The notes under the pieces were generated by a model. The model was not told the origin of the DNA. It saw nothing but the letters and a program-made list of their open reading frames with translations, and did not search any database. From contig OZ024759.1 of assembly GCA_964016885.1 (NCBI GenBank), forward strand, positions 19,778,001 through 19,842,000: a stretch of DNA of 64,000 nucleotides, given 5' to 3'. The position numbers and the translations under genes are program-made. The stretch is from Eledone cirrhosa. Lineage: Eukaryota. Positions 59,376-60,040 of the stretch are shown piece by piece; within the stretch, counting starts at the first letter, position 1; the number at the start of each line of letters is the position of its first letter.

Positions 59376-60040
59376 TAACGAAGGAAATGTGGTAAGGAAC
59401 CAGGTGGACCATAACGCACCAAAGTACTCAATACTTGAGGTAGTAGAGTGGGTAATAGGAACCAGTAAGACCCCGACAGCTGAGCTCAAGCCGTTTCGAC
59501 GGCTAATTCTGGACGCATGGTGCGGGTGAAATGAATTGAGCTTAGCGGAAAAGTCTGGATACGGCGTGGTAGGGTCGGAAAGTGCTCTACTACGGGAGTA
59601 GGAGCTAGATAACGAAGGAAATGTGGTAAGGAACCAGGTGGACCATAACGCACCAAAGTACTCAATACTTGAGGTAGTAGAGTGGGTAATAGGAACCAGT
59701 AAGACCCCGACAGCTGAGCTCAAGCCGTTTCGACGGCTAATTCTGGACGCATGGTGCGGGTGAAATGAATTGAGCTTAGCGGAAAAGTCTGGATACGGCG
59801 TGGTAGGGTCGGAAAGTGCTCTACTACGGGAGTAGGAGCTAGATAACGAAGGAAATGTGGTAAGGAACCAGGTGGACCATAACGCACCAAAGTACTCAAT
59901 ACTTGAGGTAGTAGAGTGGGTAATAGGAACCAGTAAGACCCCGACAGCTGAGCTCAAGCCGTTTCGACGGCTAATTCTAAGTCCAGAATTAGCCGTCGAA
60001 ACGGCTTGAGCTCAGCTGTCGGGGTCTTACTGGTTCCTAT
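59376..60040. mobile_element. Family D element: 234-bp head-to-tail concatemer (about 2.6 units) with a terminal 60-bp inversion, inserted in (TA)n
   Basis: Units start at 59376, 59610 and 59844 and appear identical; inverted arm 59981-60040; GC-rich and self-complementary. Confidence 0.85.

Follow-up and report, generated by a model that had tools for sequence, protein, structure and literature searches.

The window analyzed here is the whole stretch of 64,000 nucleotides from Eledone cirrhosa. At positions 59376..60040 it contains 2.57 head-to-tail copies of a 234-bp unit, 100% identical with 0 mismatches, followed by an inverted piece and flanked on both sides by (TA)n (Table 1). A sequence-only reading of this locus had described the same arrangement, about 2.6 identical units set in (TA)n and ending in an inversion. 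The inverted piece spans 59981-60040 when compared with the unit by BLAST, and 59980-60040 when compared with the parent element described below. Two further insertions of the same family are present in the window. Comparison of the three copies, at 27921, 54467 and 59376, agrees with the earlier observation that they share a start base and the point at which they stop or turn, and that the array reads through this point, which it does at the junction between parent +236 and +2. Since the unit length of 234 is divisible by 3, one minus-strand frame (59259-60011) stays open across every unit; it contains no methionine and is probably incidental. Elsewhere in the window, long open frames at 48723-50309 and 11224-12195, both on the plus strand, resemble by eye fragments of LINE reverse transcriptase, and an interstitial (AACCCT)n repeat of telomere type is found at 30910-31063.

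Table 1. Features of the 234-bp array and of related insertions in the window; numbers with a plus sign are positions in the parent element.
Feature	Position	Strand	Description	Basis
Unit 1	59377..59610	-	234 bp; parent +139..+3 (59377-59513) and +236..+140 (59514-59610)	exact string equality
Unit 2	59611..59844	-	same sequence as unit 1	0 mismatches
Partial unit 3	59845..59978	-	first 134 nt; parent +139..+6; long arm ends just before the likely RNA 5' end	
Inverted short arm	59980..60040	+	exactly parent +1..+61; opens with A(+1), which is absent from the 234-bp unit	exact equality
Deletion junction	59513..59515	-	joins ORF start (ATGCG, +236) to +2/+3 via one shared G; recurs at 59748	
(TA)n target, left flank	59260..59376	.	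adjoins the +140 end	
(TA)n target, right flank	60041..60066	.	adjoins the +60/61 end	
Start codon of parent 717-aa ORF (+232)	59516..59518	-	in-unit frame ends after 10 codons	stop read from sequence
Stub insertion of the same family	54468..54661	-	one arm from +140 to +2, the inverted one from +5 to +61; 91-94% to the parent	
Older single-arm stub	27921..28058	-	about +140 to +5; 85% to parent	
Predicted hammerhead 3' half, type I	59470..59505	-	stem II 3' arm, GAAA, stem III with palindromic loop, GUC, stem I 3' arm	sequence
Bulged hairpin 1	59426..59449	-	+67..+90; 6 nt past the +60 insertion end; candidate RT start signal	
Bulged hairpin 2	59584..59605	-	+145..+166; 4 nt past the +140 insertion end; candidate RT start signal	

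We searched the species' own 3.0-Gb genome with the portion of the unit that the short copies lack. The perfect matches are spaced 3531-3543 bp apart and represent tandem copies of an element of about 3.53 kb, which is intact elsewhere in the genome. This parent element encodes a 717-aa open reading frame (ORF) in the sense of the window minus strand, with the ATG at +232 (+1 is the A of TTAGTC at L061:5257). On its minus strand the unit reads parent +140..+236 and then +3..+139 without a difference, and the inverted arm equals +1..+61 exactly. The retrotransposon origin suspected earlier is thus borne out, as the unit equals two pieces of an autonomous Penelope-like element (PLE). The orientation of the parent ORF also upholds the minus-strand sense deduced from the insertion geometry, and together with the G signature described below it rejects the plus-strand sense that G-U pairs had seemed to favor. 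The terminal repeat of a DNA transposon, or a MITE, was considered as a source and rejected, as the ends are asymmetric (+60 versus +140) and the partner encodes a reverse transcriptase (RT)-endonuclease protein.

The parent protein matched 0 Pfam families at E 0.1, and a PDB sequence search returned 0 entries at E 1. Among 7996 scored proteins, 2049 are homologues at E<=1e-20, and a feature search found GIY-YIG and RVT_1 in 18-92% of members of the feature neighbours. The protein carries RWR, DKT and CxCX5C motifs, as in the published description of the Hydra clade, and 23 of its first 44 residues align by eye with the N-terminus of the published Hydra-1_Obim. The available text on this clade describes such motifs together with (TA)n targeting (PMC8557442). 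Three hallmarks of the clade are observed at the array: a (TA)n target, an inverted 5'-truncated arm and two alternative 3' ends, which define a tail. Judged from its sequence, the 234-bp unit is a derivative of a Hydra-clade PLE, the clade being assigned from motifs, the feature search and the by-eye alignment.

Tandem full-length 3.5-kb copies with open 717-aa frames are located at L061-L065 (G000:C1 near 437.2 and 91.5 Mb; C2 near 51.3 Mb). Neighboring units at L061 differ by 1 mismatch, the mark of a very young family. Beside one full-length array, a 55-bp piece of the ORF (about +1755..+1812) is repeated about 13 times in tandem (L064:9171-9888). In one low-share public RNA run, in contig form, a single contig was found, on 3' UTR repeats. 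Other public runs, of unrecorded kind, contain opposite-strand joints at +1/+2 and loose ends in TA, the same pattern as in the genome.

The 28-mer at +4..+31 has 22,786 exact matches in the genome. We inspected the first 100 listed (C1, 2-27 Mb), counting arms rather than insertions. In 81 of these the 5' boundary falls at -4..+4 (26 at +1 and 20 at +2), and the remaining 19 run seamlessly upstream past +1. The recurring end noticed in three copies therefore goes far beyond chance among these first listed arms, 81 of 100 ending within 8 nt. At the other end, 49 arms terminate at +58..64, 41 at +138..144 and 8 elsewhere, and 2 continue. These two fixed 3' ends (+60 and +140) match the two internal RT start sites reported in vitro for an anole PLE in the available text of PMC11167929. 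Each is adjacent to one of two bulged hairpins (Table 1), both of which are present in the predicted sense fold.

These twin hairpins bear on the nested helices that had been proposed for the unit. The complementary sequences are present, but folding exceeds that of shuffled sequences only modestly (z -2.4 for the minus and -1.9 for the plus strand, 150 shuffles each), and the helix of gtagtagagtg with tgctctactac is cross-pairing between the two near-duplicate hairpins. Two matches resembling the hairpin motif, at 5998 (minus) and 7756 (plus), lie by TA-rich flanks in opposite orientation and may mark the ends of another PLE-type insertion.

At +1 stands the A of TTAGTC, replaced by TCAGTC in 3 of 26 aligned sequences; this is an initiator-like motif. 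The youngest copies have a TATA-like box at -29, but older subfamilies do not conserve it, and it was set aside as promoter support. PLE pLTRs are known to contain the start site (PMC2377424, PMC8557442), and TATA/Inr-like motifs are described for rotifer pLTRs (PMC3846280), in the available parts of these papers. The head-to-head junctions provide a further mark. We defined as diagnostic those whose -1 base is unlike both the parent (T) and the opposite arm (C), 101 in total by hand count. An untemplated G occupies this position in 94 of the 100 listed, and A in 6; many junctions have an extra G on both arms. The broader junction class contains 844 with G versus 724 with A or C, most of the C rows looking by eye like re-copied AATTC. 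Untemplated G at the 5' ends of L1 and SVA copies has been attributed to copying of the m7G cap (PMC3287187, available text). Because it is a known trace of a copied cap, the untemplated G suggests that +1 is a likely capped transcription start, positioned inside loop II of the hammerhead predicted below. The cap-like G at head-to-head junctions also indicates that both arms were copied from sense RNA to its 5' end; in the available text of PMC3846280, an antisense template had been proposed for such junctions. The extra G could alternatively reflect the terminal-transferase preference for C at a blunt template end, in which case it would prove an end rather than a cap.

The boundary at +1 could instead mark a hard stop of the RT, or a site of RNA processing by some unknown nuclease or ribozyme, given that it is sharp, that it lies within a hairpin arm of loop II, and that at L068, where -20..-1 is deleted, the 5' end is still near -5 despite the altered upstream sequence. 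We assign this very little probability. It does not account for the G at nearly all listed diagnostic junctions, for the scatter of ends over -4..+4 with an A/G mode at the initiator-like motif, or for the 19 of the first 100 arms that cross the boundary seamlessly; moreover, no Rfam match is found in the window or the parent, and the parent fully accounts for the hammerhead half. Thus, of the processing site formerly placed near 59514/59515, a fixed RNA end at that position stands, but its marks are those of a capped start and not of a cleavage product.

The minus strand of the unit contains half of a predicted hammerhead, as had been recognized, and neither CUGANGA nor UUGANAA occurs on either strand of the unit. 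The predicted cut is at +41/+42 (window 59475/59474), 41 nt from the recurring end. The other half is found in the parent directly before +1 and consists of stem I (ACCCC), the core UUGAGAA and the stem II 5' arm. The complete hammerhead sequence is present only in copies that reach upstream of +1. The parent thereby has a complete predicted three-way junction with a U3-A8 core, which Rfam does not detect, in place of the canonical pLTR hammerhead. A core heptamer was identified in 18 of the first 100 listed arms: UUGAGAA in 12, UUGAUAA in 3, CUGAGAA in 2 and GUGAGAA in 1, the UUGAUAA cores varying at the free position 7. Replacement of C3-G8 by U3-A8 is a known covariation in Schistosoma PLEs (PMC4209133), and this core variant has been reported active (PMC3088659), in the available text of both papers. 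In a 101-nt region of the parent, the hammerhead junction appears in the minimum-energy fold of two of five copies (L061 and L090) and not in that of L083, L068 or L153; the five folds have z of -0.7 to -2.7.

Covariance models gave no ribozyme family match: 0 of 4227 Rfam families reached the gathering score in the window, and no ribozyme was found in the parent region at E<=10. A strict hammerhead descriptor identified no other complete hammerhead in the window. A 119-bp (TA)n island at 54292-54410, with CTGATGA followed by GAAAC, fails this descriptor and is possibly a decayed hammerhead of another family. The unit has no visible resemblance to twister, pistol, hatchet or hairpin ribozymes. 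The processing motif of unknown type suggested earlier is not supported, as the upstream parent sequence supplies the other hammerhead half. The array is a real feature and a PLE derivative, not a new ribozyme.

Searching with exact flanks for the start region joined to the ORF-start region, we found 12 matches at 11 loci, all with different junctions; these searches are biased to the start-codon region. The exact junction of the 234-bp unit occurs at this locus only (exact-match flanks, own genome), which argues for a template-jump product of the RT and not for a spreading family; the 234-nt retrozyme family envisaged in the sequence-only reading is not supported. Stubs ending in GC or GCA were considered as offspring of the unit and dismissed as a ranking artefact, because chance alone would, by our estimate, produce a few dozen of them in about 18,000 ends. 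The same +236|+2 junction is also found in the diverged copies L014 (91%) and L005 (about 80%), and therefore identical jumps arise independently. About 20 of about 25 inspected junction loci contain a single junction, and several of them stop again near +1 on the second pass, as expected for one RT jump on a linear RNA.

Multimers are present at five loci: this array, L004, L006, L069 and L068. All units share identical private junctions in L001, L004, L068 and L069. At L069:1242-3016 (G000:C28 near 22.82 Mb), a 233-bp unit is arrayed in mirror image on both arms, with 7 identical junctions and a private 15-bp insert, templated from the parent ORF end, on both inverted arms. L068:1290-3523 (G000:C2 near 356.03 Mb) is a locus-unique array of 7.5 x 299 bp from the same parent. 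Every unit there contains a complete U3-A8 hammerhead with a shortened stem II, so that L068 meets the sequence definition of a retrozyme and is a candidate newborn one. No source loci for the L069 and L068 arrays were found outside those loci in the assembly, from which a rare source allele can be absent. At L006:1359-2001, three units share one junction and alternate in subfamily alleles, through conversion or mixed templates.

These arrays raise the question of what template was copied. One possibility, which we regard as unlikely, is a covalently closed RNA circle of 234 nt: a strand of the parent 3' UTR would supply in trans what the half hammerhead lacks, and the RNA would be cut at +41/+42 and closed by a host ligase, as in retrozymes. 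In a cofold, parent -52..-27 and +1..+50 are predicted to form a full hammerhead (-23.4 versus -12.1 kcal/mol alone), and two-strand hammerheads of such format exist. Of the divergent or trans-completed hammerhead proposed earlier, trans-completion is feasible in silico with a 26-nt parent strand. The private junctions shared by all units of four arrays, including both arms of L069, and the lack of source loci in the assembly also favor a circle, and such a model has already been proposed for PLEs. On the other side, the short arm opens with A(+1), which a circle of the unit does not contain (a chance of about 1 in 4), and the long arm ends at +6; together these favor, weakly, a linear capped template. 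In 100 junctions counted by hand, arm ends are not evidently enriched where the hammerhead is predicted to cut: about 20 of the 100 ends fall at +41..+44, versus 11 at +28 and 14 at +32, both microhomology peaks (432 junctions in total), so no cut-site peak dominates. The agccgt-TTCG-acggct hairpin noted earlier is, in sense, the stem II 3' arm paired with the stem III 5' arm; this pairing would lock the half ribozyme because its true stem II partner is missing; when all 236 nt are folded, the prediction shows the half ribozyme trapped in an alternative hairpin. At L006 the junction is common to the units, whereas sites diagnostic of subfamilies vary between them. For the L068 and L069 arrays, with 7 identical private junctions and no source locus, a circular template is at least as good an explanation as repeated jumps.

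The array could also have been inserted as a mini-element with a single junction and expanded later by local unequal exchange between direct repeats at the DNA level. One junction per locus is the rule among the inspected loci, every array is private to its locus, the L006 units are heterogeneous, and local amplification has been proposed for PLE-derived repeats (bioRxiv 10.64898/2026.07.22.740005, available text). However, the units match the youngest parent at 100% identity, so that there was little time for later expansion, and both inverted arms of L069 contain arrays of about 3.5 units, with the +61 and +140 ends as their limits. We therefore consider later expansion highly improbable. 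From the array data, repeated jumps, homologous strand transfer, a circle and DNA-level expansion are not separable.

Based on these observations, we think it probable that the repeat, which is internally deleted and protein-free, is a piece of a young Hydra-clade PLE, that its recurring end is the likely capped start within loop II of the predicted hammerhead, and that the multimer was most likely made during retrotransposition, without a ribozyme step. The PLE RT would prime from nicked (TA)n at internal sites beside the twin hairpins and copy to the cap. Usually both arms would halt at the cap and be joined head-to-head, producing many thousands of stubs. In rare cases the RT, on reaching the 5' end, would jump to a site further downstream, +236 in this array, and go round again. 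The multimer would most likely result from repeated jumps, or from strand transfer on an RNA with redundant termini.

Stubs of PLEs, and tandem repeats derived from them, are already known. This PLE family is very young and very abundant, so its copies record the mechanism. Nothing found in a literature search places a start site within a PLE hammerhead. Both this placement and the cap-like G of the head-to-head junctions are apparently undescribed. In a plant retrozyme the arrangement is the contrasting one, with the start site upstream of an intact hammerhead (PMC12029980, available text). A start site that apparently splits the hammerhead suggests a testable role for PLE hammerheads, and one-off mini-arrays that exactly match an intact parent point to retrozyme-like repeats born from a PLE in one step. 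More tentatively, and with the odds against it, a general scheme can be proposed. The promoter would start transcription inside hammerhead loop II, so that the 5' repeat of the RNA is an inert half ribozyme and the downstream repeat a whole one cutting at +41. The RNA would gain a 41-nt terminal redundancy comparable to the R region of LTR elements, and the stubs would represent 'strong-stop' cDNAs that became integrated. No covalent circle would be needed: pLTRs and tandem arrays would arise by homologous transfer, and retrozymes by mis-transfer, with a whole hammerhead at L068 and a half at the 234-bp locus.

The parent and the array can be compared with several systems, as these are described in the available parts of the cited papers. 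With Hydra-clade PLEs that have a C-terminal endonuclease, such as Hydra-1_Obim (Craig et al., 2021; PMC8557442), the parent has in common an RWK-like motif, DKT, CxCX5C and, at the C terminus, a GIY-YIG-like domain; (TA)n targets, a predicted pLTR hammerhead, partial tandems, an inverted 5'-truncated copy and an optional tail are also shared. It is a separate family from Hydra-1_Obim, about half of the N-terminal residues being identical by eye. It differs from the clade in length (3.5 kb with a 1.1-kb 3' UTR, versus less than 3 kb), in the hammerhead (a U3-A8 core and long stem II, versus canonical cores in the three Hydra sequences compared) and in the tail (80 nt versus 30-40 nt). Poseidon PAc of Anolis (Frangieh et al., 2024; PMC11167929) likewise has two internal RT start sites that define the tail, and we list as further likenesses its AT-rich targets cut on both strands and a hammerhead cleavage that is unneeded for insertion in vitro. 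In PAc, however, the start sites are in the ORF and the hammerhead overlaps the start codon, whereas here the 5' UTR contains the start sites and the predicted hammerhead is apparently split by the RNA 5' end. The hammerheads of the Schistosoma Cercyon PLE (PMC4209133) and natural core variants (PMC3088659) share with the parent U3-A8, type I, a short stem I and a palindromic loop III; the parent differs from them in that its stem III is full and its loop II, about 40 nt long, contains the likely transcription start.

Animal non-LTR retrozymes (PMC7229834; bioRxiv 10.64898/2026.07.22.740005) resemble the array in having tandem units of 170-400 nt that are derived from pLTRs and mobilized by PLE machinery. 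The 234-bp unit, known here from genomic sequence, differs from them in lacking a complete hammerhead per unit and in occurring at a single locus (PMC7229834). By the defining test, a complete type I hammerhead in each unit, the array as sequenced is not a retrozyme. Chlamys elements such as MRC1 (PMC8557442) are, like the array, non-autonomous PLE derivatives in multicopy head-to-tail arrangement with no canonical hammerhead; those elements are amplified families, whereas the 234-bp unit is a one-off.
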